Positions 4,141 to 62,364 of a stretch of DNA of 64,000 bases are shown here, piece after piece. The stretch comes from a virus (taxonomy: Duplodnaviria > Heunggongvirae > Uroviricota > Caudoviricetes), in the IMG/VR virus record IMGVR_UViG_2541047680_000004. One strand, written 5' to 3'. Below the pieces are notes generated by a model. That model did no database searches, was not told the origin of the DNA, and worked only from the letters and a program-made list of their open reading frames with translations. A program made the translations under genes and the position numbers. The first letter of the stretch is position 1. Each line of letters opens with the position of its first letter.

Positions 4141-4160
4141 TAGGTGTGTGCTTACCTATC
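4141..4160. promoter_or_regulatory. family-2 dyad-like motif (TAGGT..CTTACCTATC)
   Basis: shares the TTACCTATC word with sites at 30062, 56083 and 62343; intergenic between lipoprotein and holin genes. Confidence 0.3.
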
Positions 4161-4389
4161 ATTCAGCATTGCAACGGACTGATGAGAAAGCACCTACTCC
4201 AACCCATCGCCAGTTATAGATGCTACCCGCTTTGTATAAGGTATAGTCGTTCACTTTTTTAACAGCATATATGGGTATGACTGTCTCCTGTCCACCAATG
4301 ATAGCCTCACCATAACATATAGGTGTCGGCAATTTCTGGCAGCCAGTAAGAGAGAGAACAACAGCTATTGTTAGAAATAATCTTTTCAT
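4159..4389 (-). CDS. small lipoprotein
   Basis: 76 aa; signal peptide MKRLFLTIAVVLSLTGC with lipobox LTGC. Confidence 0.5.
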   Translation of the reverse strand: MKRLFLTIAVVLSLTGCQKLPTPICYGEAIIGGQETVIPIYAVKKVNDYTLYKAGSIYNWRWVGVGAFSSVRCNAE

Positions 4390-4399
4390 CGTTTACTCA

Positions 4400-5008
4400 T
4401 CAGTTATACAGATTTCTATTTATTACCGGTACTCTGCCATTTACACTAAAACTATGGCCGCCATTAAGTTGGTTTACGAATATAGAGCTAACAGTATTTC
4501 CATATGCCGCATATCCATAAACCATTGTCATGGCCCCGCCCGGTACTGGAACCGCGAACACATTTGCATATGTTGGGATTATCGCTGGCGGGTAATCAAA
4601 AACATGCCCTCCAGAACTGTTCCACTCCGTATTATTAAGAAAGGTAAATGAAAGTGGGATATTTGCCGTATTATAGATCTCCTCTCCTCGCGCATTGAAA
4701 AAACTCATGCCCCAAGTTTCTTTTTTGGCTATACCTTTCGAAAATACGTATATCGTGGCACTAGAGTCGCTACCCTGACCTCCGAAACTGTAAATCACCT
4801 GGTTGTTACGCACTATTCTGTTGGCTATTAATGAAACAGCTTTCGAATAGGCAACAAAAATCATCGGTGAACGATCTGGAGATATTTGGGTGTTAAACTC
4901 TGTCCCGCCGGACAAAGAAACAACCTGCTTTCTCTGAAAAACGATAGGAGACAAAGAAGGAGACATCCAGACCTTCCCGTCAGATCGATATATCTTGCTT
5001 CCGTACAT
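4400..5008 (-). CDS. hypothetical tail-fiber-associated protein
   Basis: 202 aa, Gly/Ser/Asn-rich; start overlaps upstream stop in TAATG arrangement (translational coupling). Confidence 0.35.
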   Translation of the reverse strand: MYGSKIYRSDGKVWMSPSLSPIVFQRKQVVSLSGGTEFNTQISPDRSPMIFVAYSKAVSLIANRIVRNNQVIYSFGGQGSDSSATIYVFSKGIAKKETWGMSFFNARGEEIYNTANIPLSFTFLNNTEWNSSGGHVFDYPPAIIPTYANVFAVPVPGGAMTMVYGYAAYGNTVSSIFVNQLNGGHSFSVNGRVPVINRNLYN

Positions 5009-5262
5009 TATTTTTGAAAAACCAATATGTTTAAATTACCACTAGCTCCAGACCACGAAATGGTATTTCCAGAAACCGTAAGACTTGTGTATTTTCCATT
5101 GGTTACGTCCATTATGTAATAGTCGATTCCCAATCCCGCCTCAACCTCATATGTTCTACTTCCTGAACCAGAGGGAGTAAAATAATCGAGGTAATAAACA
5201 GGGGCCAACGCATCGACCATCTCCTGTCTTGATGGCGACCAAACCTGTGCACCATAGCTCAT
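5008..5262 (-). CDS. hypothetical protein
   Basis: 84-aa ORF directly downstream of the tail fiber gene. Confidence 0.3.
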   Translation of the reverse strand: MSYGAQVWSPSRQEMVDALAPVYYLDYFTPSGSGSRTYEVEAGLGIDYYIMDVTNGKYTSLTVSGNTISWSGASGNLNILVFQK

Positions 5263-5322
5263 AAATATATCCTTATACTTTTAAGCAGGGGCTGGTTTAG
5301 TTCCAGCCCCGATTGAAGTTGT

Positions 5323-8300
5323 TTATTCTTTAGGTGAATTTAACTTCGTTTCAAGCTCCTCAACCCTTTTGGTCAATTGCTGAATATGATGAATGAGTGG
5401 TACAACCAAACGCTCATACATCACTCCTTCAGCGACCATACCATTTGAGGAAATATCTCCTGGAGAATCATTATTTGTTGGTTCACGCCAATGGACATAT
5501 TGCGGGGCAATCTCACCAACCTCTTCAGCAATAAGGCCGTAATACCCCCAATCCTTTCGGTCACCTCGACAAATTGAACGATACCAAACAGGTCTTAATG
5601 ACAAAAGTTCATCAGCATATCGATCTTGTAATGTTTCAATATCCTTTTTATAGCGCCTTGAAGATGTTGAACGCCAAACTGTATTGATACCTGGGTTTGG
5701 ATCAATGTACATATTGGCACCGCTAGTAGTTGTGCCAATATCCCATATAGCAAACCCTCCACTACCGCCTGATTTGACAACCAGTGTTTCAGCAATAATA
5801 TCCAGGTTGCCACTATAGCCTGTCAGTGATGATCTGCTTGCATAGGAACTTAGAAGGTTTGTTACCTCTGTTTTCGTATAAGCATTAAGGTTAGCCGCAG
5901 TCAAAGTAATATCGGCAGAGCCATCAAACGCCACACCAGCAATTTTCCTTGCTGTCTGCAATTTTGTGGCTGTTGCGGCATTACCAGTAGTATTCTGATT
6001 ACCGGTTGTATTCACACCAGGGATTGAATCCTTAGCGGTATATACCTGCGCCCACGCTGACCATGCCGCATCAGTGGTATCTCTTCTGGAGCGAATGAAA
6101 ACCGGCGCATGTGCACCGCTCGTACCACTCCAGCCAATAAGCAACTCGCCCTCACCAGCAGCACTCGCACCTTTCATGTGCAATACGTTGCCATACGTGG
6201 TCGGGTAGCTATTGTTGTACGCCTCGTACATTTGAATGCCAGCAGTACCTTGAGTAGAACCGCTTAAAGCCGTAACTCGACCACGAGAAACCAATGTATT
6301 AATATTGATATCACCTGAACCATCAAACTTAACACCATTGATGTTTCTCGCTGTTTGCAACTTCGTAGCTGTTGAAGCATTGCCATTCAAGCTACCATTT
6401 ACGCCACCAGTAACATTTAGTCCATTACCAATAGACACAACACCGCTGCTATTATTAATTATAATCGGTCGCAAACTGTTCCATGAACCTAACGTATCTC
6501 CTGATGCTGTTAGCATGAAATATGTGCTGCCGCCGTCATTACGGATAAAGAACCCGTAGTTACCGTAAGCAATGCGGAAACCATTTGCATATTTTGAAAC
6601 GATCTCACCAGAAGACGTCAACCCTCCAGATAATGTGCCACCTGAAAGCGGTAATGCTCCTACATCAGAAGCTGTTGGTTTGTTTCTAGTGTTATAAGAA
6701 CGACGCCAGCCTGGCGCATAATCACTCCCATTGTACACATAAATAAATTCCGCATTATTAACACCACCATGACCTGATGTTGTTGCCGTTGTAACACGAA
6801 TAGTGTAGTGGCTTGTTGCCTTATTACTAAACACCTCAATCACGGAACCAGATAGATCGATCCTACCGCAACCAGTGTCGTCTATATAATTATTGTTGGC
6901 GTAAGTCCATGAGCACCGTGCGATCCAATGTTTGTTTGTAAATGCCCCCTGATTGTTTAGCCAAGTTATAAATTGAGCAGTCGTAAATGCCGTTCCGTTA
7001 CCACTATTTAACCATCCAGCGGCAGCGGTTGGTGCGTTTATATCAGCCGGCTGAGGCATAAATCCAGTCGTGTAAACCTGCTCCCAACCACTTTCAAAAC
7101 CATAGCCATCTCTTGAGGAACGGTAGAACAGACCACCATTTTTATAGTGAGCTTTAATTTGAAGCGTACGGCAACTACCTACACCGGTATAAAAGTTGGC
7201 AAGAATATAACTGGCGCCTGTTCTAGTTACATTGTAAGCACCAGATTCAGCATTCCACGGCACGCCACCATCAGCATCCGCATATGACCCTGTTGCCCTT
7301 CTTGCGAAAGCGGCAACATGCGCAGCGGTTAAAGTGATATCAGTAGAACCATCAAATGGAACACCGGATATTTTTCTTGCAGTCTGAAGTTTTGTAGCAG
7401 TTGCAGCATTACCAGTGGTGTTCTGATTACCCGTAGTGTTTACACCTGGAAGGTTGATATTTGCAGAACCGTCGAAACCAACTCCACCGATAGATCTTGC
7501 CGTCTGCAATTTCGTTGCTGTACTTGCATTACCATTTAATGTTCCGGTGATCCCACCAGTAACAGACAACGGACCTGAAACTGTTCCTCCGGTTGTTGGC
7601 AGTGCTCCAATATCTAACGGCGTCGGTTTCTGATGTGTGCTATACATCGTATAAACAACACCATCGGTAACGCTGGAAGGCTTACTCGCTGAATATGTTG
7701 GCGATGTATAAACAGAAACTGACGCATTTGCAGTACAATCCCAATGGATATTTACACTCGTCGCATAATTGCCAATTTCAACGTAAATATCATATGTATC
7801 GCCGGATGTGTTGATCCAGGCGAAATTCGTTAATCCGACAGCTGTACGCTTCCACAAAGCACCTGTAATCCCTTTGGGGTTTCCATTGCCTGCTCGTAGA
7901 ACCAGTTCTGAAATGCCTGCCTGATGTGGGGAGCCGACGTTGTAACCAGCGCCACCAATCAATGCGATGTAAACGATGGAACTCGCTTGTGGCATTGTAA
8001 CAGTAGCCAGTTTGAACCACCCGGCCCCGCCAGAGAAAGACATCGTTATTGAATTTAAAGTACCAATATCTTTCGGCGTTAATGTGATATCCGCAGTCAG
8101 TGCTTTCCCGTTAATTTTTCGGTTAGATGGCACCCTGCTGTTCGCATTGTCATTGACTACTTTAACTGCTTTTGGCGTTGCGGCCAGCGATTCACTGGTG
8201 CTGTCGACAGCACTGCTAAGTTTCACAACACCTTTAGTTGTAAGGCTTGCGTCTTCCATCGCAACTGCACCGGCAATCTCTTCAGCACGATCAGCAGCAG

Positions 8301-9621
8301 CTTCCGCACGGGTCGCAGCGGATTCAGCAGCAGTTTTGCTCTGAGATGCTGCCGTCGCACTGCCTGCCGCCTCTGTTGCTTTCGTGGATGCCGTCGTGGC
8401 GCTGCCCTTCGCTGCTGACGCCTGTCTGGTCGCCTCATCTTTTGAAGCAGACGCAGATGATGCCGATGACGCTGCCGAACTGGCGGACGATGCGGCTGCC
8501 GTTTTTGAGGATTCTGCACGGGTTTCCGACGCTTTCGCGTTCGTTTCGGATGTCTTCGCTGCGGAAGCAGACCTCGCTGCTGCGCTGGCCTGTTCAGTGG
8601 CTTCGCCAGCCTTCGTTGTGGCTGTTGAAGCAGATGATGCGGCACTTTCTGCCGATTTTCCGGCGGCGGTGGCACTGGCTGAGGCCTGCCCGGCACTTGT
8701 TGACGCGGCACTGGCAGACGACGCAGCCGCTGTTTTTGAGCCTGCCGCAGCCGAGGCGCTCTGTCCCGCTGCCGTTTCAGAAGACCTGGCGTTCGTCTCG
8801 GACGTTTTTGCCGCCTTCGCGGAATTTCCTGCCGCCGTTGCCGAGGAAGCGGCATTACTGGCGCTCGAGGCTGCGCTCGTTTCTGATGATTTCGCTGCCT
8901 CTTTTGAGGCCGCCGCATCCCGGGCTGAGGTGGCAGCTTCTGACGCCTTCGTGGTCGCGGTGGATGCAGAAGTGGCTGCAGATTTTTGTGACGCTGCAGC
9001 ATTCGTTTCAGACGTTTTCGCGGCACCGGCACTGGTGGCCGCCGCGCTTTTTGAGGACTCTGCAGCGGATGCACTTTGAGACGCTTGAGAGGCTTTTTCT
9101 CCAGCGGTATTGGCGCTTTCTGCTGCTGCGGCAGCACTGGCCGCCGCCTCACGAGCTTTGTCGCCAGCAGCATCAATCGCGTCAGTGTTATTTTTATACC
9201 ACTCAACGTTTTCGTTGTGCTCGTTGACGATCTGCATTAGCGGCTTAACGGTCACTTCTGTACCGTCTTCACGCTCGATTGTCACCTCATCCAGAGCAGT
9301 CAACCAACTGCGCATGGACTTGGAATCAGCCGACATACGCGACATTAGTGCTGTAAAGCGCGCGCTAAACTGTGTTAAGTCGCCTTCATAGGTCGTAATG
9401 ATTCGGCACGGAACTTCAGACTGAGTTTCGCCGGTATAGGGTTCTGAGAGAACAATGTTCGTATCACTGGTTACGCGCTTGATCTCATACAGCTTATTGT
9501 CGGGGCCAATGACGATCATCCCCGGCAACACACCATTAGCTGTTACGTTCCAGGCTGTCCCTGCCCCAACCAGAGTATTGCTGCCCTGTGTAAATGTGAT
9601 AGTACCTTCCCTGTACCACAT
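5323..9621 (-). CDS. side tail fiber with C-terminal intramolecular-chaperone (S74-type) domain
   Basis: 1432 aa; tail-fiber motifs GVVKLSSAVDSTSESLAATPKAVK and repeated NGNASTATKLQTAR blocks; C-terminal chaperone-like segment (KKDIETLQDRYADELL...YGLIAEEV); long Ala/Ser-rich tract. Confidence 0.85.
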   Translation of the reverse strand: MWYREGTITFTQGSNTLVGAGTAWNVTANGVLPGMIVIGPDNKLYEIKRVTSDTNIVLSEPYTGETQSEVPCRIITTYEGDLTQFSARFTALMSRMSADSKSMRSWLTALDEVTIEREDGTEVTVKPLMQIVNEHNENVEWYKNNTDAIDAAGDKAREAAASAAAAAESANTAGEKASQASQSASAAESSKSAAATSAGAAKTSETNAAASQKSAATSASTATTKASEAATSARDAAASKEAAKSSETSAASSASNAASSATAAGNSAKAAKTSETNARSSETAAGQSASAAAGSKTAAASSASAASTSAGQASASATAAGKSAESAASSASTATTKAGEATEQASAAARSASAAKTSETNAKASETRAESSKTAAASSASSAASSASSASASKDEATRQASAAKGSATTASTKATEAAGSATAASQSKTAAESAATRAEAAADRAEEIAGAVAMEDASLTTKGVVKLSSAVDSTSESLAATPKAVKVVNDNANSRVPSNRKINGKALTADITLTPKDIGTLNSITMSFSGGAGWFKLATVTMPQASSIVYIALIGGAGYNVGSPHQAGISELVLRAGNGNPKGITGALWKRTAVGLTNFAWINTSGDTYDIYVEIGNYATSVNIHWDCTANASVSVYTSPTYSASKPSSVTDGVVYTMYSTHQKPTPLDIGALPTTGGTVSGPLSVTGGITGTLNGNASTATKLQTARSIGGVGFDGSANINLPGVNTTGNQNTTGNAATATKLQTARKISGVPFDGSTDITLTAAHVAAFARRATGSYADADGGVPWNAESGAYNVTRTGASYILANFYTGVGSCRTLQIKAHYKNGGLFYRSSRDGYGFESGWEQVYTTGFMPQPADINAPTAAAGWLNSGNGTAFTTAQFITWLNNQGAFTNKHWIARCSWTYANNNYIDDTGCGRIDLSGSVIEVFSNKATSHYTIRVTTATTSGHGGVNNAEFIYVYNGSDYAPGWRRSYNTRNKPTASDVGALPLSGGTLSGGLTSSGEIVSKYANGFRIAYGNYGFFIRNDGGSTYFMLTASGDTLGSWNSLRPIIINNSSGVVSIGNGLNVTGGVNGSLNGNASTATKLQTARNINGVKFDGSGDININTLVSRGRVTALSGSTQGTAGIQMYEAYNNSYPTTYGNVLHMKGASAAGEGELLIGWSGTSGAHAPVFIRSRRDTTDAAWSAWAQVYTAKDSIPGVNTTGNQNTTGNAATATKLQTARKIAGVAFDGSADITLTAANLNAYTKTEVTNLLSSYASRSSLTGYSGNLDIIAETLVVKSGGSGGFAIWDIGTTTSGANMYIDPNPGINTVWRSTSSRRYKKDIETLQDRYADELLSLRPVWYRSICRGDRKDWGYYGLIAEEVGEIAPQYVHWREPTNNDSPGDISSNGMVAEGVMYERLVVPLIHHIQQLTKRVEELETKLNSPKE
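8290..9175 (-). repeat. low-complexity Ala/Ser/Thr-rich coding repeats inside tail fiber gene
   Basis: recurring KTSETNA / SASAA units in translation; GC-rich repetitive codons create long spurious ORFs in other frames. Confidence 0.7.
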
Positions 9622-9664
9622 GTTGAATATGCTCCTTGATTTGGTGGGCTATCCTTGCCCCCAT

Positions 9665-9683
9665 TAAGTGTGTACCTACTTAT
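9665..9683. promoter_or_regulatory. family-2-like dyad (TAAGT..ACTTA)
   Basis: TAAGTGTGTACCTACTTAT in the J/tail-fiber intergenic gap. Confidence 0.25.
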
Positions 9684-9712
9684 TTTTACCGATATAAATA
9701 TTTTTTTCTACA

Positions 9713-14443: not shown

Positions 14444-14454
14444 AAAATCCTTGA

Positions 14455-16571: not shown

Positions 16572-16596
16572 GATAGTAAATTAGTACTTACTTATC
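16572..16596. promoter_or_regulatory. family-2 dyad GATAGTAA-N8-TTACTTATC
   Basis: dyad symmetry in the M/L intergenic region. Confidence 0.3.
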
Positions 16597-23012: not shown

Positions 23013-23060
23013 TGATGGAAAACTCCTTTTTCCGTTAATTCTACGCATTCATTGCGCTAA

Positions 23061-23080
23061 TAGTAAGTATATACTTACTA
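23061..23080. promoter_or_regulatory. family-2 perfect dyad TAGTAAGTAT-ATACTTACTA
   Basis: 20-bp perfect palindrome about 50 bp upstream of the major tail gene. Confidence 0.35.
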
Positions 23081-23086
23081 ATTGAG

Positions 23087-26637: not shown

Positions 26638-26655
26638 ATAGATAACTACTTATCT
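26638..26655. promoter_or_regulatory. family-2 dyad TAGATAA-CTAC-TTATCTA
   Basis: perfect 7-4-7 palindrome between capsid and Ig-like genes. Confidence 0.3.
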
Positions 26656-26665
26656 ACTACACTGA

Positions 26666-28475: not shown

Positions 28476-30050
28476 TCACTCGTTCTCTTGAGTAGATGAG
28501 TCCCCATTCCCTCGGGGTTGATCTTGCCCTCTTTCTTGGGCTGCACCACGATCATAAGTAAGTGCTGACTTATTTTCAAGGGTATTTAGATCATTTTTTG
28601 GAGGAAAATTCAAGAGATCTTTATCAAATTCCTTTTTCATCGCCTCAGTAATGTTCGGGAAAATCTTCTCAATAAGCATTTCCATCTGGTGACGACGTAC
28701 AGAGTCCGGTGCCTGAAGTAATGACAGTTTCTCGGCAACAGAAAATTCATCAGTAAGGCCACGAATATCGAAACTTTCTGGATACGCAATTAAAGAGTGG
28801 TCTTCGTCCAGATCTACCCCCATCCATTTCGCAACCAGTAGCATGATTTGGCGTTCAGCCCTTTCCAGACGCTCTGCTTTTGTGACAAGCAAGCTATTTA
28901 CACGCTGGAAGTCATACATTTTTGCGGCACCAGATGAGTTATCGATTCCCTGTGCGTTGTCCTGCTTCGTTCGCTCACCAGCTACACCAACTGAATGGTA
29001 GATTTCGTTAATCACCGTCTTAATCGTAGTGATGATCATCTGAGCTTGTTTCGGGTCTGGTGACAGATAAAACGGCTGGTTTCCACCTTCAGAATCGTAG
29101 GTGAAGACTCGCTTTGTGCCCATTTCAAGCACTTTAGTGTGGTTTTCATCACCAGGTAAAAGCGACTGTACTGGTATAGCCAACTGGCTAAATGTCTGAT
29201 CCTGAATAATGGCATCAAGGTTTGACAGATAGTTTGCAACCGCACGATCAAGATAAGCGATATCATCGATCAACGATGGGCTGAAATACGGTGATTCACT
29301 TTCTCCAATACAATCAACAGGAAACACAGGAACTACGCTGAGATTATGCTCACCGCTATCCTCTAAAATAACTTTTGCCTGACGGCGACCTGCTCCACCA
29401 GCGCCCTTCTTCACTTCCTCACGGAACAGATACCACTCGTTTTGTGTCCACAGACGATAACGTTGGTATTCCTGACCTGTAGAAGTAAAAGGATCTGCGT
29501 CATCGCGAGCGACTTCCACAATTAACGCCCATAACATATTCCCGTCGTCGTCCCATGCCACATCCAGCATTTGCTGAGGTGAAATCCAGTAGGCGTAGGC
29601 GCGAGCATCTTTCTTTTTCTCGTCAGCTACTGACTCAACATCACCACTCATCGTGCTATCGACAACAACCCATATGCGACCGTAAATAGACGACTGCAAA
29701 TCAATAGCGGCCATAAATGAGTCAATAGAGGCATTCTGGCGAGTCGCACGTTTCCAGAAATTGCGGATCTGCTCTGGTGCCTCTTCGATATTTCTATGAA
29801 TGTCTTCTTTAAAGAGATATTTGTTGATGAGGTTTACCACCTCACGAGTGTGGTTGAAGCGATAAGCACGTTCAACTCGCTCCTTAAACTCCTGATCTCC
29901 CTCTTTAAAGTAACGAAAGATATTGTCTGTAAACCAACCACGCCCGCCAGCGTAAGTGCTGGCGAGGAAGTCCCAATGTTCTTTTTTCTTTTCGTATTCC
30001 GGGTGGCGTCGCGCCACCAGATCCTTAATTTGTTTGTCGTTCAATTCCAT
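28476..30050 (-). CDS. portal protein
   Basis: 524 aa immediately downstream of TerL; size and position. Confidence 0.7.
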   Translation of the reverse strand: MELNDKQIKDLVARRHPEYEKKKEHWDFLASTYAGGRGWFTDNIFRYFKEGDQEFKERVERAYRFNHTREVVNLINKYLFKEDIHRNIEEAPEQIRNFWKRATRQNASIDSFMAAIDLQSSIYGRIWVVVDSTMSGDVESVADEKKKDARAYAYWISPQQMLDVAWDDDGNMLWALIVEVARDDADPFTSTGQEYQRYRLWTQNEWYLFREEVKKGAGGAGRRQAKVILEDSGEHNLSVVPVFPVDCIGESESPYFSPSLIDDIAYLDRAVANYLSNLDAIIQDQTFSQLAIPVQSLLPGDENHTKVLEMGTKRVFTYDSEGGNQPFYLSPDPKQAQMIITTIKTVINEIYHSVGVAGERTKQDNAQGIDNSSGAAKMYDFQRVNSLLVTKAERLERAERQIMLLVAKWMGVDLDEDHSLIAYPESFDIRGLTDEFSVAEKLSLLQAPDSVRRHQMEMLIEKIFPNITEAMKKEFDKDLLNFPPKNDLNTLENKSALTYDRGAAQERGQDQPRGNGDSSTQENE

Positions 30051-30061
30051 TTGAATAACCT

Positions 30062-30081
30062 TAGATAATTACTTACCTATC
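30062..30081. promoter_or_regulatory. family-2 dyad-like motif (GATAATTACTTACCTATC)
   Basis: in the 26-bp gap between terL stop and portal start. Confidence 0.3.
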
Positions 30082-32160: not shown

Positions 32161-32427
32161 TTACATCACCAGTAACTTCGCTTTGGCTCGACCTAAAGTG
32201 GTTAACCCAAGAGTTCGGCGGTGATAGCGATTGTCACTGCGTTGGCGCGTATGCCCTTTCTCCACCAGCCCCTTTTTTATCAGAGCGCGAATTGAGAACT
32301 GGATACTTTGCTTGGTTGTCTTGTACGGCAAAACTTCAAGCAATTCGTCCAGGTCAAGTAGATGACCTCGCTCATAACCGAGATTGAGCGTTTTGATGAT
32401 GTCCTTTTGTTTATCGGTTAACGTCAT
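32161..32427 (-). CDS. small winged-helix-like DNA-binding protein (candidate)
   Basis: 88 aa; helix-turn-wing-like pattern TKQSIQFSIRALIKKGLVEK and basic C-terminus. Confidence 0.4.
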   Translation of the reverse strand: MTLTDKQKDIIKTLNLGYERGHLLDLDELLEVLPYKTTKQSIQFSIRALIKKGLVEKGHTRQRSDNRYHRRTLGLTTLGRAKAKLLVM

Positions 32428-34654: not shown

Positions 34655-35334
34655 TACATACGCTCCTTGTAGTAGTCGACCAGCCACACCAGAGCCTCAC
34701 CAGCGTTCTCCATTTCATTACCGGTGTTAATAGCCTGCTCTTTGATGATGTTTTTTATGGTTTCTGCAACACGATCTGACGCATCGAAAGTTACTTTGAA
34801 GCGCATGGTCTGATGTTCCGCCCCCACACGTTCGGTTTTCTCTCGTTTGTCGGTATCGACAGGCTCATCACTACCACGAGACAACGCCTCCAGTGCTTCA
34901 AGGTCGATTGCCGCCTCTTTTGCTAAAACCATCGAGATTTCGTCGTCATACGGGGCGATTTCAGACAGTTGATAGTCAAGTTCTGACTGAATTTCTTCAA
35001 TGAAGCGTTGCAATGCGATTTGGTCGTCTTCACCGTATCGCTCGTTGTCCACCAGTGACATCTGTTTAGCTACGACATCGCTAATTTTGCCCACAGAAAG
35101 CACTGGAACCGTTGAAATTCCTTGCTCAATAGCGGCACGCCAGCGATGTTCGCCGCCGAGGATTTCAAAAAATCCATCTTCAAGTTCACGAGCCAAAATT
35201 GGCTTAAAAAAGCCCAATTTTTCGATAGAACCTTTCAGTTTTTCAAAATTCTGCGCACCAACCGAATTGGTGTTCCAGGTATTCGGGCGAAGGTTGGCAA
35301 CATCAACCTGCAAAATCGTGATTTTTACATCCAT
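34654..35334 (-). CDS. ParB/Srx-like N-terminal domain protein
   Basis: motif ILGGEHRWRAA; first gene of the minus-strand operon; start codon uncertain (ATG at 35334 or GTG at 35352). Confidence 0.7.
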   Translation of the reverse strand: MDVKITILQVDVANLRPNTWNTNSVGAQNFEKLKGSIEKLGFFKPILARELEDGFFEILGGEHRWRAAIEQGISTVPVLSVGKISDVVAKQMSLVDNERYGEDDQIALQRFIEEIQSELDYQLSEIAPYDDEISMVLAKEAAIDLEALEALSRGSDEPVDTDKREKTERVGAEHQTMRFKVTFDASDRVAETIKNIIKEQAINTGNEMENAGEALVWLVDYYKERM

Positions 35335-35352
35335 TTTATTGCTACAATCCAC

Positions 35353-35370
35353 TAAGTAATCACTTACTTA
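35353..35370. promoter_or_regulatory. family-2 dyad TAAGTAA-TCAC-TTACTTA in divergent promoter region
   Basis: perfect 7-4-7 dyad between the ParB-like operon and the helicase operon. Confidence 0.35.
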
Positions 35371-35416
35371 TTATAATAGCCAAATAACATACAAAAGGCA
35401 CTAAGGAAAGAGGTTT

Positions 35417-42361: not shown

Positions 42362-42487
42362 TTCACTCTCCGTAGTGTATTGGTTATTTTTATATTCTAT
42401 GATCGTAAGTATGTACTTACAATACAAAAAAGCCCCGTAAGGATGGCGGGGCTGTCGTACTGTCGACTAATTACCACTTGCACATTA

Positions 42488-52475: not shown

Positions 52476-52663
52476 TAGGTAGCTCTCTCAACAACAAGCA
52501 ATTCGTCGTAGTCATAATCAGTTTCGGAACCATCCGTACCGAACAGAGTCACTTTTTCACCGTTCATCCAGAAAGATTTAACCGCACATCGTTTGCCTTT
52601 AGATGTTATGACCACATCACCTGGGGTTACATCTTCAGCGCGAACTTCTACTGTTCTCATCAT
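52475..52663 (-). CDS. hypothetical small protein
   Basis: short ORF from MMRTVEV; start uncertain. Confidence 0.3.
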   Translation of the reverse strand: MMRTVEVRAEDVTPGDVVITSKGKRCAVKSFWMNGEKVTLFGTDGSETDYDYDELLVVERAT

Positions 52664-54833: not shown

Positions 54834-54842
54834 TCTTAACTC

Positions 54843-54905
54843 CGTTGTTTTCTAGTTGTGGTTATTTTCACAAATAAGAAAAGGCAGAAAACAATTTATT
54901 TAAGG
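54843..54905. promoter_or_regulatory. composite family-1 operator pair upstream of HD-hydrolase gene
   Basis: TTGTTTTCT half-site plus AAGGCAGAAAACAATTTATTT. Confidence 0.5.
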
Positions 54906-54952
54906 CCATAAGTTATGGCCTTTATTTATTCATGCAGAAGGATTTGTAGCGC

Positions 54953-55333
54953 CTAATTGCCGGATAAAATGGGTTGAGGTGCTTGCCAGTAAGCTCCACC
55001 GTCCCATGTGAACCCCATGCGAATAAGAGTGTTTATTGCGGCTTTGGTAGACTCCGATTCGACACTGGCTTTTCGAAACTCTTGAACCTCTTTCGCCAAC
55101 TTGTATGTAATTGTGCAGGGGACGATTGCAGCCCAGCCTTTCTCATGACTGTTAATGACCATCTGGATGTGACCATCCAGAATAGGTTGATCAGGCATGT
55201 TATTGAAAACGTCTGCCTGTTTTTGAATATGAAGAAAAAGCCTTGCCAGCTCCATTTGCTCACTACGAGACAAGGGATTATCAAGAGGGTTTTTTGCAAA
55301 AGCGGCTATACGCTGTGCGTCAATGCCAAACAT
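54953..55333 (-). CDS. hypothetical protein
   Basis: 126-aa ORF. Confidence 0.35.
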   Translation of the reverse strand: MFGIDAQRIAAFAKNPLDNPLSRSEQMELARLFLHIQKQADVFNNMPDQPILDGHIQMVINSHEKGWAAIVPCTITYKLAKEVQEFRKASVESESTKAAINTLIRMGFTWDGGAYWQAPQPILSGN

Positions 55334-56037
55334 CAGCGCACCTCACCATCTTTATGGCTGGAGTTAACTTCCGCCATTAAATGTCTGACGTAATCGACAA
55401 GAGAGCCACCTGGTGGAATCTGGCATTCCTCAACTAACTGGAAGTAGATATCCGCAGCATTACGTGTATTGCTACCCGCGCATATTCTTTCTTCCCGAAG
55501 TGCATGAAGCTCGTTGATCAAACGGTCACACTCTCCGTTACGCTGATCCACAACAGCCTCAAGCTCTGCGACGCGTTCACCTGGCGTCTTACCTTCTTTG
55601 CGTTGGATGGTAACGACGAAATCGCCAATTGCAGGGACGTTGTAATCCAGCTCAAGGTAGTTTTTGGCACCGCTGCGGACGAACTCACCCGCGAACATGG
55701 TGGCGAACATCGCAGAGGCCACTTCGCCGTTGAAAAGTGACTCCAGATCTAACGGAGTCCCGGCAGCAAGAGCCTCTTTTGCTGTATCCATTGCATCCAT
55801 GAACCGATCAAACTCATTAGCGCGCTTTTCCAGGTCTTTCCATTGCTCGCTCCAACGTTTGGCAACGAAGTCTATGAATGTTTTCGCGGATTCATCAAAA
55901 TCCCCCTCAAACTTAACGATGCCTTTATCAATAATGATCTGGCCTACCGCATCCTCTGCATAACCTTTCAATGTAAACTTGAAAGAAAAATCAGAACGGC
56001 CTGTGACGTTAAAATGCTCTAACTGGAGGTTGCTCAT
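55333..56037 (-). CDS. hypothetical protein
   Basis: 234-aa ORF. Confidence 0.4.
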   Translation of the reverse strand: MSNLQLEHFNVTGRSDFSFKFTLKGYAEDAVGQIIIDKGIVKFEGDFDESAKTFIDFVAKRWSEQWKDLEKRANEFDRFMDAMDTAKEALAAGTPLDLESLFNGEVASAMFATMFAGEFVRSGAKNYLELDYNVPAIGDFVVTIQRKEGKTPGERVAELEAVVDQRNGECDRLINELHALREERICAGSNTRNAADIYFQLVEECQIPPGGSLVDYVRHLMAEVNSSHKDGEVR

Positions 56038-56082
56038 GTGTTTTTCTCTTCTCGTTTAGTTACTACATTCTTACACAAATTA

Positions 56083-56100
56083 AGTAAGTATTTACCTATC
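56083..56100. promoter_or_regulatory. family-2 dyad-like motif
   Basis: AGTAAGTATTTACCTATC. Confidence 0.3.
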
Positions 56101-57784
56101 ATTTAACGCGTTTGAAAACGTATACGCTGACTGTGATCCCGGTATCTTCAAACTCGTTGGTAAACGACTTCCCTCTGGCATAAACGTAATTATCCATCGT
56201 CATCCAGTCCAGTATTGGCGCAGTGCCCGGCAATACTGCTACAAGACGCCCGCCGACTTTCAGATGCCCCAGCGCAGCCATCGTGTGCTCTCTATGACGA
56301 CCAAGCGAGTACGGCGGGTTCATAACGATTTTGTCGAACTGATAACCTGCGTTGTTCTCAGACCACTTTATGAAGTCGCAGCAAATCGTGTTCGTATACC
56401 CTTTTCCACGCAGGATATCAGCGAAGAGAGGTGCGATTTCTATGCAGGTAACATCTTCCAGATCGGCGTTAATATAGGCCAGAAGATCCCCACGTCCGGC
56501 TTGAGGCTCCAGCAGCTTCTCACCAGGCTTCAATTCAGTGGCTCTGGCAACGTACTCAGCAATCAAGCGTGGGGTAGGGTAGAACTGGTGTGATTTTGTA
56601 TCCGGTATTAATCCGGTAGCCACAATCGTATTTAGCGTATGGCCGATCTCATACGGGAACTGCCAGTGCTTTTTCTCCTGCACGCCGCCAATGAAGCTCA
56701 GTGTGCGCTCAAGCTCTTCCACCTGCGACTTCTGGAGAGCTGAATCAGAGAAGTACCATACGCCTTTGTCTTTGCTCAATCGCCCGTCACGAAGCGCAGT
56801 GCGAACCGGCACGGAGATCGTCTTCTGGATTAAACCGAACTGCTTTGGTGCCCGTGTTTTTGGCGCAGTTCGGCATGGCGCGGGGATTGCAGCAGGCATA
56901 CTGTAAGCCAGCACCTCATTCAACTTCCAGGCCACGTCAGGATGTATTTCAAAGTGAACGTTGCCGTTCTTGAACATCTTCACGCGCATCAGATTTCCAT
57001 CGACGTTCATCCAGTCACCGGTCTGGCAGTCGTTTGCCCTATACGCAGCTGATAGCACCTCAGCAGTGCGGTTGATGGTAATAAATTCTTTGTGCGCGAA
57101 GAAATGAAGCAAGACACGCAGATCGTCGATGTAGTCCTCTTTGCGATAGTTCACGCTAACGCTGTCCCGCCAGAAATCAGAAATGCAGTCAGCGATTATC
57201 AGACGCTCGCTGAAACCGTTTGTCTTATTTGTCTTGTGCGCAGGACTCAGCGCCTTAAACAAGCCATACACGCGCTCAGAGAGATATTTGTGCCTGTCAT
57301 TCAGCAAATTAAGCATCGTGGGTATGACCGTTTCTGCTTTGAACTCCGGTACACCAACGAACTCTTTAACCTTCATCTGGTAGCCTGTTCTGTCAGTTTT
57401 GATGACTTCCTGTTTGCCCTCTATAAACTGCTCGCGCCACTCATCTCGACGGGAAGCTGGCATGATCAGCAAAACGTTAGTCATGTCCGTGACCTTCCTC
57501 CAGTACTCGGCCCAAATATTCTGTTTCACCCATTCCAGATCGACTTTATCCAACCAACCTCGATTTAAACGCGAGCGATCTTCATCTGGTCGATGGTTTA
57601 GTCTCAGCAGGCGATTAATCATGTTGTGGCGTTCGTCGCCATAAACGAAGTCGTGTACCTGATACATGAAGGCGATCTCTTTCTCGCACTCGGCCACGAT
57701 TTCGTGGATGACATTCATTTCCTGACGATAGTCGATAGCCGTGTTTGAGCTGGCATCGTCGATGATAGAAAGGGCTGTATTCAT
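56099..57784 (-). CDS. N6-adenine DNA methyltransferase with large N-terminal domain of unknown function
   Basis: C-terminal motifs FYPTP, LEPQAGRGDLL (SAM-binding-like) and NPPY; about 370-aa N-terminal region without recognised motif. Confidence 0.75.
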   Translation of the reverse strand: MNTALSIIDDASSNTAIDYRQEMNVIHEIVAECEKEIAFMYQVHDFVYGDERHNMINRLLRLNHRPDEDRSRLNRGWLDKVDLEWVKQNIWAEYWRKVTDMTNVLLIMPASRRDEWREQFIEGKQEVIKTDRTGYQMKVKEFVGVPEFKAETVIPTMLNLLNDRHKYLSERVYGLFKALSPAHKTNKTNGFSERLIIADCISDFWRDSVSVNYRKEDYIDDLRVLLHFFAHKEFITINRTAEVLSAAYRANDCQTGDWMNVDGNLMRVKMFKNGNVHFEIHPDVAWKLNEVLAYSMPAAIPAPCRTAPKTRAPKQFGLIQKTISVPVRTALRDGRLSKDKGVWYFSDSALQKSQVEELERTLSFIGGVQEKKHWQFPYEIGHTLNTIVATGLIPDTKSHQFYPTPRLIAEYVARATELKPGEKLLEPQAGRGDLLAYINADLEDVTCIEIAPLFADILRGKGYTNTICCDFIKWSENNAGYQFDKIVMNPPYSLGRHREHTMAALGHLKVGGRLVAVLPGTAPILDWMTMDNYVYARGKSFTNEFEDTGITVSVYVFKRVK

Positions 57785-57796
57785 AATTACACCATT

Positions 57797-57830
57797 AAAT
57801 AATTTGTTTTCTGATTGGTGTAATTATCGC
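57797..57830. promoter_or_regulatory. family-1 operator/promoter element
   Basis: AAATAATTTGTTTTCTGATTGGTGTAATTATCGC. Confidence 0.5.
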
Positions 57831-57925
57831 AAACTTGAAAAGGCATAAAAGCTGCATTCATAGGCGTTACAGCAGATTTAAGGCGTAAAAATGGGGGCTT
57901 TCGCCCCCTGTCGACTGGTGCAGTA

Positions 57926-58492
57926 TTAGAGTGCGTATTGCGTTTTGTGCGGCTGCTTATTCAAGTCATGGCGATGCGTGAGCTCCCGCATCATGTCTTC
58001 AAGGCGACTCTTTGTGTCGTCGAGCTGGTCGGCCATTGCACCTAAAAGCTGGCGAACGGCCATCGGATCGTCGCTGTTTAGTGATGGCATTTTATAACCT
58101 GCTTTAGAAGATATAAGGTTAATTGCAGACATCAACATCGTTAGAGAGGATTTAAGCCCGGCAATTTCACGATCTTTGCTGGCAATAATCGTCTCACTTT
58201 TATTACCGTCATGAGATCCTTGAGTCTCGCTCACCATATCCAAAGTCGCTTGCAACTTATCAGCTCTCTCTTTTTCAGCAAGATAATGAACACCGAAATG
58301 ATGTGCTAAAGCTACAATCTGAGTTGGCTCTTCAAAGGTGGACTCAAAATTAAGTGCTGTAACCACTCTCTCAAATATGGAAACGTCTTCTATTCCTCGA
58401 AGAATGGCTAACATTTTGACCAGTTCATTAGCATCCATTTCTTCGAATAAGGCGTTTTGTTCATCAGCTATCGCTTTGCATTTCTTGCACAT
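57926..58492 (-). CDS. hypothetical protein
   Basis: 188-aa ORF. Confidence 0.4.
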   Translation of the reverse strand: MCKKCKAIADEQNALFEEMDANELVKMLAILRGIEDVSIFERVVTALNFESTFEEPTQIVALAHHFGVHYLAEKERADKLQATLDMVSETQGSHDGNKSETIIASKDREIAGLKSSLTMLMSAINLISSKAGYKMPSLNSDDPMAVRQLLGAMADQLDDTKSRLEDMMRELTHRHDLNKQPHKTQYAL

Positions 58493-58510
58493 GTGTTTTT
58501 CCTAATGCTT

Positions 58511-58549
58511 AAACAAGTTGTTTTCTTATTGGCTTTATTGTGATGTGGC
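58511..58549. promoter_or_regulatory. family-1 operator/promoter element
   Basis: AAACAAGTTGTTTTCTTATTGGCTTTATTGTGATGTGGC. Confidence 0.5.
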
Positions 58550-58789
58550 ATAAAAGGGGAGCAAGCTAAACGTAAAGGTGCAAACTCTCTATTTCGGTCA
58601 ACGAAACACAAGGGCCATTTGGCCCTTGTCATTAGCACTTTGCTTTACGAACTAACGGATAAGCGAAGTAGATCGCCAAACCAATGAGGACGCCATCAGA
58701 AATGACAGACATCATCTTTCCCGTAAAATCCACCAACACCGCCATCACCAGAAGAGCAATGACGATCACAAGCCGGAATCTCTCAAGCA

Positions 58790-59215
58790 TTAGAGATAAG
58801 CATCCAGTGACAACTGAAGCGCCTGGGCGATCTTTTTCAGTGCCTGCTCTTCTTGTTCACCAATGCCGTCCTGATCGGCAATATCAAGGCACAGACACAG
58901 AACATCGACCGCCTCTGGAGTACCCGCAATATCAGACAGCTCACGAATAGCCTGTGCATTAGCAGAACGAGGGGACGCTTCGTAACGAGCACGGATATTG
59001 GCGCTCATTTGGGCAATTTCACCAGCAAACGGAGAAAACGCAGGCAGAGCTGCAATTGTCTTCTCAAGAATGGCAATTTCTTTTGCGTCACATGTGCCGT
59101 CGGCATAGGAGATCATGTACGCGCCCCACACGGTGGCCTCAACCGCATCACGGTTCTCCATTTTTTTGACTTCGATAACAGCTTTACGAGTTTTCTTTTT
59201 GAAGAAACCTAACAT
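58790..59215 (-). CDS. hypothetical protein (possible TerB-like fold)
   Basis: 141 aa; loose resemblance to TerB-type pattern (YADG..E..L); weak. Confidence 0.35.
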   Translation of the reverse strand: MLGFFKKKTRKAVIEVKKMENRDAVEATVWGAYMISYADGTCDAKEIAILEKTIAALPAFSPFAGEIAQMSANIRARYEASPRSANAQAIRELSDIAGTPEAVDVLCLCLDIADQDGIGEQEEQALKKIAQALQLSLDAYL

Positions 59216-59238
59216 GTGTTTTCCTTTTATTATTTGTC

Positions 59239-59270
59239 AAAACAAGTTGTTTTCTAATTACATAAATTGC
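59239..59270. promoter_or_regulatory. family-1 operator/promoter element
   Basis: AAAACAAGTTGTTTTCTAATTACATAAATTGC. Confidence 0.5.
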
Positions 59271-59308
59271 TTACGCAGAGATGGTCAATGCATATGCACT
59301 AACAGCCG

Positions 59309-59497
59309 TCAGAAATAACCAAGTACCGAACCAACTGGAAAAACAAAAATCCCAACTACACGAGCCAAGGTCATGCCAGCCTGAAACTGGAGATCGCCAG
59401 AGCAAACAAGTTTTATAATGTTCGATACCCAACCGGCGGCCATGAGGGCAAGAATTGCCAGCCAAATTTTTCCAAAGTGATTTGAAAACCAGTTCAT
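59309..59497 (-). CDS. small membrane protein
   Basis: 62 aa with two hydrophobic helices. Confidence 0.35.
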   Translation of the reverse strand: MNWFSNHFGKIWLAILALMAAGWVSNIIKLVCSGDLQFQAGMTLARVVGIFVFPVGSVLGYF

Positions 59498-59506
59498 ACA
59501 ACCGCC

Positions 59507-60001
59507 TTAGTCACAGCATGATCCTGAGTAACTGGATGAACTTGAGGTATCGCATCCACCGCCATCCCATCCAGAGTGACAGGACGCTCCACTGGAGTGG
59601 TGGTAATTGTCGTCGACGAAGGTGTGGTGATGGATGAATCCGGCATCAAAAGGCTCTGACCGGCTGGAACGGCTACCGTCGCCAGTGAAACTATAATGAG
59701 AACGTAGGCCATTGGTTTCAGCCTCTTTCTTTGAAAATTTTCCATTCGAACTGTCCTTGTTGTTTTTCTCCTTCACTAAAGGCCGTGCATTTTTCGCTTC
59801 GCGTGAAGAACCAGAGGCAACAATCGCCCCCACGTTCGCAACAACTGACGCTTGATTATCTAAACGTTCATTCAGCAACCGAACGGTAGTCTCTAGTTCA
59901 TCAAGACGTGACATAACACGACCGCTAAATAATTCGGCCAAAATTTGACGTAAAGAACGAGGACGTTTAGTTACAGAAGTGAAATAGGTTTGACGTGCCA
60001 T
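59507..60001 (-). CDS. hypothetical protein (N-terminal coiled coil, low-complexity C-terminus)
   Basis: first about 75 aa protein-like; remainder Ser/Gly/His-rich and overlapped by another ORF with a signal-peptide-like start (59494..59745). Confidence 0.3.
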   Translation of the reverse strand: MARQTYFTSVTKRPRSLRQILAELFSGRVMSRLDELETTVRLLNERLDNQASVVANVGAIVASGSSREAKNARPLVKEKNNKDSSNGKFSKKEAETNGLRSHYSFTGDGSRSSRSEPFDAGFIHHHTFVDDNYHHSSGASCHSGWDGGGCDTSSSSSYSGSCCD

Positions 60002-60130: not shown

Positions 60131-60153
60131 ATAGGTAAACACTTACTTACTAT
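60131..60153. promoter_or_regulatory. family-2 dyad-like motif
   Basis: ATAGGTAAACACTTACTTACTAT. Confidence 0.3.
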
Positions 60154-61205: not shown

Positions 61206-61321
61206 AACCTGACGCCAGTGACGCTTACCCCCACCCATCAGGTCGAGCCTCCAGTCTACGACTGGAAACTATCAGATCTTAGCACTTACAATTCACTTTA
61301 TGAATAGTTTGTACTTATCTA

Positions 61322-61576
61322 TCATTGTGATTGATTATTTTCTCGACCATGTAGTTGAACATTCAAGGCAAACACCTCATTGATCAACTCACCTAAAAGC
61401 TGTTCAACAAGTTCGCGATGCTCGCCAAGATGCAAGCACTTAATTGCCCACTCGTACAAGTTGAAAGCCTGCTCACGATCTTTCATCATTTCACGAGCCT
61501 GGGCCAGAAAATCGCTCTCTACGAGCGCAACGACATTAGTCGGGTATGACATGTTGGTTTCCTTAAAGTGGTTCAT
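61322..61576 (-). CDS. hypothetical protein
   Basis: 84-aa ORF. Confidence 0.35.
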   Translation of the reverse strand: MNHFKETNMSYPTNVVALVESDFLAQAREMMKDREQAFNLYEWAIKCLHLGEHRELVEQLLGELINEVFALNVQLHGRENNQSQ

Positions 61577-61659
61577 AAAATCGATTTTAAAGCGTCTGGG
61601 AAGGGGGTCTAGTGGATTCTGTAGTGATGTTCAGGTCTGGGAGTCTCTGATACAAAACA

Positions 61660-61716
61660 GCCTGCTTCCGTATATTAATAATTAATATGTAGTTATTTAT
61701 ATATACAGAAGCAGGC
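61660..61716. repeat. large AT-centred palindromic element, copy 2
   Basis: arms GCCTGCTTCCGTATAT / ATATACAGAAGCAGGC; GGTCTGG 19 nt upstream. Confidence 0.6.
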
Positions 61717-61738
61717 TAATTACAGACGCCAGAGCAAA

Positions 61739-62332
61739 CTAAGCAGCCTTCTTTGATGGTCTTTTTTTCCTGATCACATTCGCAGGATCATACCCTCCCA
61801 GACTTTTCATGACGTCCAAAGGGATCTTGCTTATAGAGTGCCCAGCGTCCTGACAAAACCCTCGAAAAACAACGAGCATACTGCCACCGGGGTTGATGTT
61901 TACTTCTACCTGACCCAAATTGACGTCAGGCTCGACAAACGCAACGCGGCCACCAGACAGAATAATCGTCTCATTCGCATACTCTGTTGCACGCTCATAC
62001 CACTTTGTATCGAGGGATTGAGGAATTAGCATCACTGTTGTAACTCCGCGAGCCTGCTCACGTATAGCCGCATCAATCCAGGGGGAGATTTTGGAGTAGG
62101 GTGGATTGAGGAAGGCAATTGTACCTGGCTGCCCCCATTCAGATTTCAAAGCATCGCGCTCAACGCCTATGAAAATAGGCAGCTTTGCATTGTCCTTGTT
62201 GCAGGCAACGTCAACATCAAATGTCACTCCAAGATAACGTTGAATGGCAGAAAACAGCCAATCAGGTGTTCTCCAGAGGTCACGAAGAGAGTTGTCGCGC
62301 TTTCGCTGTTTGATTTTTTCGGCTGCAATCAT
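61739..62332 (-). CDS. phage-type DNA N6-adenine methyltransferase (Dam-like)
   Basis: motifs RTPDWLF, FDVDVAC and FLNPPYS; 197 aa; no adjacent restriction partner. Confidence 0.8.
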   Translation of the reverse strand: MIAAEKIKQRKRDNSLRDLWRTPDWLFSAIQRYLGVTFDVDVACNKDNAKLPIFIGVERDALKSEWGQPGTIAFLNPPYSKISPWIDAAIREQARGVTTVMLIPQSLDTKWYERATEYANETIILSGGRVAFVEPDVNLGQVEVNINPGGSMLVVFRGFCQDAGHSISKIPLDVMKSLGGYDPANVIRKKRPSKKAA

Positions 62333-62342
62333 CTTCTTCCTC

Positions 62343-62364
62343 GATAGGTAAGTGATTACCTATT
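62343..62364. promoter_or_regulatory. family-2 perfect dyad ATAGGTAA-GTGA-TTACCTAT
   Basis: 8-4-8 palindrome about 10 bp upstream of the methyltransferase start. Confidence 0.35.

Follow-up and report, generated by a model that had tools for sequence, protein, structure and literature searches.

The 64,000-nt stretch analyzed here (hereafter the window; IMG/VR virus record IMGVR_UViG_2541047680_000004, Caudoviricetes) carries a family of AT-rich, 20-bp palindromes, or dyads, about 14 of which occupy short gaps between its genes (Table 1). Megablast assigned the window to the SSU5 group of phage-plasmids, with identities of 99.2% to phage Cyrano (pLF82), 98.6% to Escherichia phage CMS-2020a, 81% to Salmonella phage SSU5, and ∼79% to relatives from Klebsiella. 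The plus strand of the complete Cyrano genome (108 kb) corresponds to the minus strand of the window, which comprises the terminase-head-tail-lysis arm, the parA region, the ParB-like/uvsW region, and many small genes; nearly all genes lie on the minus strand, and the intergenic share is ∼12%. A first-pass annotation of the letters had placed members of the family at ten positions, and AT-rich dyads were indeed present at all ten. Members absent from that list were found at 28554-28573, 42403-42424, and 61303-61322, as was a pair of half-sites at 1204-1217.

When aligned on the gene strand, all copies fitted one 20-bp register with the palindromic consensus ATAGGTAAGT|ACTTACCTAT. Its TA steps fall on positions 2-3, 6-7, 10-11, 14-15, and 18-19, which amounts to a 4-bp periodicity. 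Because TA recurs every 4 bp, the copy at 23061-23080 seems palindromic in a shifted register; what had been described as a perfect palindrome there is a palindrome, but it is the 20-bp dyad read 2 bp out of register rather than a separate element. The refined pattern RTARGTA-N6-TACYTAY ([AG]TA[AG]GTA-N6-TAC[CT]TA[TC]) was searched with a tolerance of two mismatches or fewer and matched 12 sites in the window, all except one of them intergenic. Against these 11 intergenic sites, dinucleotide-shuffled intergenic DNA yielded 0.37 ± 0.61 (maximum 3 in 300 shuffles), and at one mismatch or fewer, 6 sites stood against 0.03; as the pattern was refined on the same sequences, the exact fold-enrichment is somewhat inflated, and conservation in relatives provides independent support. 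The doubt that such a family might not be significantly enriched for AT-rich intergenic DNA did not hold up. The word GATAGGTAAGT occurred 6 times at one mismatch or fewer (0.72 ± 0.84 expected), TAAGTAA was intergenic in 11 of 12 cases, and GATAGGTA in all 6.

A position weight matrix scan of the full Cyrano genome returned 32 matches (29 intergenic), of which ∼26-30 are good sites. They extend through the DNA-metabolism region beyond the window, and one copy lies within the portal gene; thus, the first-pass annotation was right in that sites lie at operon junctions in both arms, but they are not confined to them. Late genes are not the only ones preceded by dyads; the same holds for DNA-metabolism, methylase, ParB-operon, and UvsW genes. 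The plasmid-maintenance genes repA and parA have no full dyads, whereas genes for structural proteins, lysis, and DNA metabolism do. Several sites are flanked by a stop codon on one side and a GC-rich, terminator-like hairpin on the other (major capsid protein [MCP]/Ig and J/fibre); at others, the next start codon follows within 11-12 nt. Strong half-sites were found on either side of the dyad, many copies have a single good half-site, and no strict orientation was apparent. On either strand, the dyad and its common ATG/CAT flank (aTGATAGgtaagt) contain stops in several reading frames (one has TGA-TAG, another TAA), and the stop codon of TerL is the TAG within a dyad (30077-30079).

Conservation was assessed by a portal-anchored scan of viral contigs, which yielded 80 loci with a portal identity of 68-100%. 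In these contigs, the dyad was present at the orthologous junctions TerL/portal, MCP/Ig, tail completion/tube, and ParB/uvsW, and at the in-portal position. At the TerL/portal junction, it was kept while the 10-35 nt up to the portal ATG diverged freely, and at the MCP junction of one relative (L049), the perfect ATAGGTAAGTACTTACCTAT was found. A scan of species-representative genomes added Kluyvera, Yersinia pestis, Xenorhabdus, Morganella, Photobacterium, Halomonas, a Piscirickettsiaceae metagenome-assembled genome, and Ancylobacter rudongensis. In distant relatives (portal identity 50-70%), RTARGT-N8-ACYTAY occurred at matching junctions. In the more distant of the 80 loci, the outer ATAGGT...ACCTAT and the central TA persist, the rest of the center changes (e.g., GGTTAAC, TTTAAA), and the flanks drift. 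The dyad between the ParB-like operon and uvsW was kept in the Xenorhabdus, Morganella, and Halomonas relatives. In the alphaproteobacterium A. rudongensis, it was retained at 50% portal identity in a locus of 64% GC, and the retention of an AT-rich, 20-bp palindrome in such a genome is strong sequence evidence that it is a functional element.

Some of the dyads are part of a recognizable predicted promoter. The in-portal promoter TTGAAA-17-TATGAT (28579-28551) was the best minus-strand match in 20-40 kb of the window (10 of 12 positions matching in a consensus scan); its spacer is the dyad, and it reads into the next head gene. The scaffold/protease and capsid genes are presumably transcribed from it as an internal promoter. 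The exact spacing between −35 (TTGAAA/TTGATA), dyad, and −10 (TATGAT/TATCAT/TATACT) was kept while the surrounding codons changed. This geometry, inside coding DNA, held at 60-80% portal identity (80% group, Morganella, Xenorhabdus, and Photobacterium). Elsewhere, the same fixed register, in which −35 abuts dyad position 1 and −10 corresponds to positions 18-23, was found at Cyrano 57446 (TTGAAA-17-TATCAT), in the Piscirickettsiaceae locus at L100:1981 (TTGAAA-17-TACTAT) and L100:11498, in Ancylobacter at L098:7907 (TTGCTT-17-TATTAT), and at L096:8692 (−10 TATAAT). With the register left free, half of the Cyrano sites outscored 95% of random positions on the gene strand, compared with 27% on the other strand. 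A general rule that the dyad is the spacer of a sigma-70 promoter was rejected: it describes a subset only, and the strand asymmetry over 61 sites was not significant. Sigma-70-like matches as such were depleted relative to dinucleotide shuffles, both in window positions 1-20000 (10 versus 27.8 ± 5.0) and 40001-60000 (18 versus 29.6 ± 5.4), which suggests selection against spurious promoters in lytic gene blocks.

Whether the dyad acts as DNA or as RNA was addressed with a covariation test on 25 paralogous sites of one genome, a design that avoids counting inherited changes. The two arms paired in 69.1% of the cells, compared with 69.4 ± 1.7% when the 3′ letters were shuffled within columns (310 of 500 shuffles were at least as high), and the covariation score was 0.188, compared with 0.195 in shuffles. 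The variable purine/pyrimidine pair at positions 4 and 17 was distributed evenly in the tally of Cyrano sites (GC 5, AT 5, GT 6, and AC 5). Because paralogs within a single genome show no covariation, that seen in pooled orthologs is attributable to phylogenetic redundancy. The predicted hairpins are weak (−3.7 to −7.1 kcal/mol), their stems are AT-rich, and a U tract is missing; the terminator scan did not call the dyads themselves, only separate GC hairpins beside some of them, in agreement with the earlier view that they are not terminators. Thus, an mRNA hairpin serving processing, stabilization, translational control, or termination appears most improbable. It would fit the location of the sites between genes on the transcribed strand, the more stable folding of the best copies compared with shuffles (z −3.6 to −4.1), and the presence of a gene at 37675-38277 for an FljA-like regulator (PF03614) of the post-transcriptional type. 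It conflicts with the absence of covariation beyond the consensus (including the even R/Y tally), with the many copies that have only one good arm, with the low stabilities and the missing U tract, and with distant relatives conserving sequence and not pairing. The FljA-like protein as an RNA-level binder was set aside, as the site is symmetric and unoriented. On the evidence of its sequence, the dyad is most likely a symmetric protein site on duplex DNA, neither an RNA element nor a terminator. The lack of covariation, the weak hairpins, and the many copies with one good half argue that the consensus is recognized twice, by a dimeric or tetrameric protein; the putative dimeric regulator that the first-pass annotation had proposed accords with a palindromic consensus conserved without arm-to-arm covariation.

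A candidate for such a protein may be encoded next to the dyad in the ParB-like/uvsW region. There, uvsW diverges across the dyad from a series of genes encoding two ParB-like proteins, an ABC ATPase, an ABC/GNAT protein, p88, and TerS. This module was kept in all distant relatives. The ParB-like operon itself (window 32161-35352, minus strand; loci L092-L100), conserved from Enterobacteriaceae to Halomonas, Piscirickettsiaceae, and Ancylobacter, lies directly upstream of terS and is divergent from uvsW. The protein p88 was modeled by AlphaFold2 with a pLDDT of about 85-88 over residues 1-55; its best Foldseek matches were to the DNA-binding domain of LexA (probability 0.99, TM 0.55), a match that is weak (E 0.14), and its recognition helix is nearly invariant among the gammaproteobacterial relatives. 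PF02195 (ParB_N) was detected in two proteins of the window, encoded beside a dyad. The first of them aligns to Spo0J (1vz0) over residues 13-160 (E 2.6e-9); its AlphaFold2 model was unusable (pLDDT 44.8). In this protein, GGEHR replaces the canonical arginine patch of ParB, and an invariant C-terminal segment, RFK...NAGxAL, is present; a reading of this C-terminus as a ribbon-helix-helix (RHH) domain was backed neither by a PDB profile search nor by Pfam or hhalign. Outside the window, at Cyrano 42575-42825 (L003 9575-9825), GGTAAGTGCTTACC lies between the gene for an XRE-type repressor and a cro-like gene. It corresponds to the dyad stripped of its outer ATA/TAT arms, leaving the inner 14 bp; several half-site-like words are nearby, and this divergent region may, from its sequence, be an immunity operator related to the dyad family. 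Our order of preference for the putative binder is the winged helix-turn-helix protein p88, then the ParB/Spo0J-like protein, then the XRE-type repressor encoded outside the window.

The interpretation to which we give roughly an even chance is that the dyads are operators of a phage repressor that would silence the lytic genes of the plasmid prophage. We infer that one phage-encoded symmetric (dimeric or tetrameric) protein binds them and that its regulon would be genome-wide, with ∼26-30 sites, ∼14 of which are in the window. At a minority of sites, the dyad lies exactly between −35 and −10 and overlaps the first 3 bp of −10; here, the bound protein would exclude RNA polymerase, and the dyad would be a true operator. 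The remaining copies, in gaps between co-directional genes without a recognizable promoter, would be auxiliary sites or roadblocks ("stoperators") halting read-through, as in the case of the repressor of mycobacteriophage L5. The picture would be one of a few true operators inside strong promoters and many non-promoter sites. A repressor is favored because occupation of the spacer by a protein should repress a near-consensus promoter, for which there is a precedent in a synthetic promoter with a SlmA-binding site in its spacer that is repressed by SlmA (PMC3573117). Several observations weigh against this interpretation. Only ∼20-25% of the sites are in a recognizable fixed-register sigma-70 promoter, so that the sign of regulation rests on a subset; in the fixed register, the gene strand beat the opposite strand at 35 of 61 sites (p = 0.14); and a fixed position relative to −35 and −10 is also expected of an activator contacting RNA polymerase. 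The stoperators of L5 are asymmetric and oriented, whereas the dyads are symmetric. Both preferred candidates for the binding protein meet with difficulties: the p88 homolog of Ancylobacter has a different recognition helix, yet the half-site there is unchanged, and a Pseudohongiellaceae relative (L097) has the genes for the ParB-like protein and p88, yet no dyad was found in the 10 kb examined.

An activator-dependent promoter element, in which a phage activator in the spacer recruits or remodels RNA polymerase like Lpa of P1 and the dyads mark middle/late promoters, is possible but unlikely. P1 late promoters contain the inverted repeat AAGTNACTT four bp upstream of −10, with the same AAGT/ACTT words; the site on the uvsW side is directly followed by TATAAT and has no good −35; wherever a −10 is visible, it is at dyad positions 18-23; and sigma-70-like promoters are depleted in the late region (10 versus 27.8 ± 5.0). 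However, the half-sites are spaced by N8 and not N1, the best conserved examples have near-consensus −35 and −10 elements with a 17-bp spacer and should need no activation, and the following start codon is too near to some sites or overlaps them (Cyrano 59399 and 35607). In addition, a tblastn search with Lpa gave a best E of 3.1 in the window and of 0.29 in Cyrano, the latter in a gene absent from the window. The late activator suggested by the first-pass annotation fares no better, as the sites reach beyond late genes, no Lpa homolog was seen, and the recognizable promoters are near-consensus with the dyad in the −35/−10 spacer. A system of the ParB type, in which the dyads load or bind the ParB/Spo0J-like protein(s) as dispersed centromeres (N15-like) or for sliding-clamp silencing like that of KorB, is doubtful as well. 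It would explain why two ParB_N proteins, one aligning to Spo0J over residues 13-160, are encoded beside a dyad and why the module ParB-ParB-ABC-ABC/GNAT-p88-terS is kept in every element with the dyad, and KorB of RK2 is a ParB-family global repressor with operators that include some far from the promoters silenced (PMC11790492). Yet the half-sites are ∼13-14 bp apart, unlike the contiguous 13-16-bp palindromes of parS and OB, the partition ParA is encoded elsewhere with no full dyad upstream, the Pseudohongiellaceae locus has the proteins without dyads in its 10 kb, and the model of the ParB-like protein (pLDDT 45) is unusable. A ParB-like protein binding repressive operators would overlap with the repressor interpretation; the true rival is the centromere/partition variant only.

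It is very unlikely that the dyads are sites of the host nucleoid-occlusion factor SlmA, which enterobacterial dyads would recruit to silence promoters and/or to link copy number to division. The center of the consensus, GTAAGTACTTAC, satisfies the experimentally defined rule for a SlmA-binding site (SBS), SBS-like 12-mers (one mismatch or fewer) numbered 9 in the window compared with 1.37 ± 1.10 expected, 7 of them in dyads, and a promoter with an SBS in its spacer is repressed by SlmA (PMC3573117). Against these points, every site in the window departs from the SBS in at least one base, the SBS does not include the best conserved positions of the dyad (outer TA, ATAG), and the critical A4 and G5 are lost in the elements of Xenorhabdus, Morganella, and Photobacterium. 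Moreover, the outer dyad persists in the alphaproteobacterial (Ancylobacter) element, from a host class in which SlmA is not known to occur. On the chromosome, only 2 of 24 SBSs are intergenic (PMC5519180). Just as small is the chance that enterobacterial dyads (on SSU5-like plasmids of E. coli, Salmonella, Klebsiella, and Yersinia) double as functional SlmA sites via GTAAGTACTTAC besides binding a phage protein. If they did, the ∼30 sites on each of several plasmid copies in a cell would match or outnumber the 24-52 SBSs of the chromosome, and the phage-plasmid would either use SlmA to silence lytic promoters or couple its copy number and lytic amplification to inhibition of host division. 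That the dyads are recombination or mosaic-boundary sequences, or chance AT-rich palindromes, has a next to negligible probability. Two breakpoints in the homology between the window and Cyrano (1209 and 4160) coincide with dyads, but across 83 relatives, 4 of 100 breakpoint clusters did so, which is about the level of chance and led to the rejection of the boundary reading; chance origin is ruled out by the enrichment over shuffles and by the conservation.

Table 1. Dyads, weaker members, and genes of candidate binding proteins in the window.
Coordinates	Strand	Feature	Location	Remarks
1204..1217		weak member, two direct half-sites ATAGGTACATAGGT	upstream of parA region, just past a terminator	does not fit the 20-bp pattern
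4140..4159		dyad, ATAGGTAAGCACACACCTAC on gene strand, only left half strong	∼50 nt upstream of holin gene (3754-4089, minus)	Cyrano ortholog at 26657
9664..9683		dyad ATAAGTAGGTACACACTTAA	between J-like host-specificity gene and tail-fibre gene	Cyrano 22448
16572..16596		dyad ATAAGTAAGTACTAATTTAC at 16576-16595	between minor tail genes M and L	overlaps predicted promoter TGGATA-17-TATCAT
23059..23082		dyad ATTAGTAAGTATATACTTAC	between tail-completion and tail-tube genes	overlaps predicted TTGAAT-18-TATACT; conserved in relatives
26638..26657		dyad GTAGATAAGTAGTTATCTAT	8 nt past major-capsid stop codon	followed by GC-rich terminator-like hairpin 26608-26637
28554..28573	minus	dyad ATAAGTCAGCACTTACTTAT	inside portal gene, 3′ end	spacer of TTGAAA-17-TATGAT (28579 to 28551)
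30061..30080		dyad ATAGGTAAGTAATTATCTAA	11 nt before portal ATG	TerL stop codon inside dyad
35352..35371		dyad	divergent gap, ParB-like operon (minus)/uvsW (plus)	TATAAT directly after on plus strand
42403..42424	minus	dyad, GTAAGTACATACTTAC core	past a terminator	overlaps predicted TTGTAA-17-TAGAAT
56080..56099		dyad ATAGGTAAATACTTACTTAA	between DUF4942 gene and Ead-like gene	
60131..60150		dyad GTAAGTAAGTGTTTACCTAT	directly 3′ of RNase H-like gene	
61303..61322		weaker dyad ATAGATAAGTACAAACTATT, only left half strong		Cyrano 78477
62344..62363		best dyad of the window, ATAGGTAATCACTTACCTAT	11 nt upstream of adenine-methyltransferase ATG	
32164..32427	minus	candidate binder 1: p88, 88-aa winged helix-turn-helix	last gene of ParB-like operon	
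34657..35334	minus	candidate binder 2: ParB/Spo0J-like (ParB_N)		dyad in own promoter region

Other palindromes are present nearby. A different dyad family, GAAAACAAnTTGTTTTC, presumably the one that the first-pass annotation had counted as its first, was found at 1136-1152, 32004-32020, 32029-32045, 41142-41158, 41906-41922, 42809-42825, 46061-46077, 46112-46128, 58509-58525, and 59238-59254. Most of its members are found 20-50 nt ahead of start codons, and GATAAT or TAATTA often precedes them by ∼10 nt, so that they would sit at or near the transcription start. They are concentrated in the small-gene region and also occur before parA, terS, and a helicase gene, a distribution largely complementary to that of the 20-bp family. 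Long palindromes of ∼55 bp, CCTGCTTC(C/T)GTATATA...TATATACAG(A/G)(A/T)GCAGG with an AT-rich center, occupy 32082-32140 and 61661-61715; relatives carry them at Cyrano 31150-31211 and L098 5813-5900. At Cyrano 31175 and in Ancylobacter, the center is itself a dyad resembling the 20-bp family; the AT-rich palindrome at 32095-32120 was not counted as a plain member of that family, being the center of a longer one. One long palindrome lies just upstream of terS, exactly at the start of the linear records of Cyrano and SSU5, and may be a packaging or other cis site; the alphaproteobacterial relative has an equivalent upstream of terS, with a different arm sequence and a dyad-like center.

The window and Cyrano, otherwise 97-99% identical, differ by a non-homologous replacement (window 37232-38587 and Cyrano 100782-103246). 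Cyrano gene 116, the sole marginal Lpa-like match, is absent from the window. The product of the gene at 37675-38277 (plus strand) is FljA-like ("repressor of phase-1 flagellin"; PF03614, E 2.5e-84), and its C-terminus has a weak Hfq-like match; a diverged syntenic copy exists in Cyrano, and from its sequence, the protein may be a lysogenic-conversion or post-transcriptional regulator.

A single 20-bp operator conserved at ∼30 junctions, from Enterobacteriaceae to an alphaproteobacterium, would define a regulon and provide a bait for its master regulator, and the map of dyads predicts real internal promoters such as the one inside the portal gene. A literature search revealed no account of how SSU5-like elements, as plasmids, hold ∼100 kb of lytic genes silent. 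Should the ParB/Spo0J-like protein prove to be the binder, the system would be the phage equivalent of global silencing by KorB. E. coli, Klebsiella, and Salmonella commonly harbor SSU5-like phage-plasmids, and the family takes in a plasmid of Y. pestis, which was seen among the scanned genomes; pHCM2 of S. Typhi and pMT1 of Y. pestis belong to it as well. Members can carry resistance genes (PMC9600943).

Among known operators, those of the P22 repressors Mnt (ATAGGTCCACGGTGGACCTGT) and Arc (ATGATAGAAGCAC...) resemble the dyad in that they are symmetric, ∼21 bp long, and start with (ATG)ATAG(G/A); the respective starts are ATAGGT... and ATGATAGA... An RHH binder of the Arc/Mnt type was rejected despite the similar operators, as phmmer found no Arc/Mnt-like protein. 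The LexA box (CTGT-N8-ACAG) shares the hexamer-N8-hexamer, 20-bp geometry, and p88 is predicted to have a winged helix like that of the LexA N-terminal domain; however, the half-site of the dyad is TAAGT/TAGGT, p88 lacks the S24 cleavage/dimerization domain, and the structural match is weak (E 0.14). The center GTAAGTACTTAC obeys the 12-bp rule for SlmA sites, GTRAGYRCTYAC, in which positions 1, 2, 4, and 5 must be G, T, A, and G, position 3 is a purine, and position 6 is a pyrimidine (PMC3020112). No individual site is perfect, however, the outer conserved bases lie outside the SBS, and the center is not kept in relatives from other hosts; this likeness is probably incidental. With the KorB-OB system of RK2, the dyads share a palindromic form, a dispersed distribution over a plasmid, with some sites at promoters and others distant, and an encoded ParB-family protein (PMC11790492). 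In contrast to the operators of ParB and KorB, the half-sites of the dyad lie in the outer 6-7 bp of a 20-mer whose center varies, a spacing atypical for the helix-turn-helix of ParB. The OB of KorB is a contiguous 13-bp palindrome, and RK2 has 12 KorB operators. The dyads are not contiguous, abutting 13-16-bp palindromes near the par locus, and there is no full dyad at parA.

P1, also a phage-plasmid, offers two parallels. Its late promoters have an AAGT/ACTT inverted repeat in the spacer, just upstream of −10, with −22 boxes annotated as AAGTGACTT/AAGTTACTT. The Lpa box is a 9-bp element (N1; AAGTNACTT) centered near −22, whereas the dyads have N8 and, with −10 at positions 18-23, a center at approximately −19.5; moreover, P1 late promoters have no −35, whereas the best dyad examples do. 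A late promoter of the Lpa type was rejected, as the similarity is one of words only and tblastn with Lpa (PF25716) was negative in the window (best E 3.1). The C1 repressor of P1 controls separate lytic operons from many dispersed operators (annotated in NC_005856), as proposed here; those operators, however, are asymmetric 17-mers of unrelated sequence, and P1 late genes are under the separate control of Lpa. No homolog of C1 or Lpa was seen. A literature search revealed neither an occurrence of the motif sequence nor a description of transcriptional control in the SSU5 group. The arrangement resembles that of L5-type phages, in which 20-30 repressor sites are distributed across the genome, few of them in promoters and most of them "stoperators" that block elongation (PMC6550527). 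In L5, a monomer binds asymmetric 13-mers whose orientation follows transcription, whereas the sites described here are symmetric 20-mers without strict orientation, and there is no homology of sequence or protein. In both cases, however, many intergenically enriched copies lie genome-wide, mostly in short gaps between genes including the structural arm, a subset overlaps promoters, and some Cluster A prophages are extrachromosomal as well (PMC6550527). Judged by its sequence features, the dyad family is probably a new, well-conserved example of a dispersed phage operator network.

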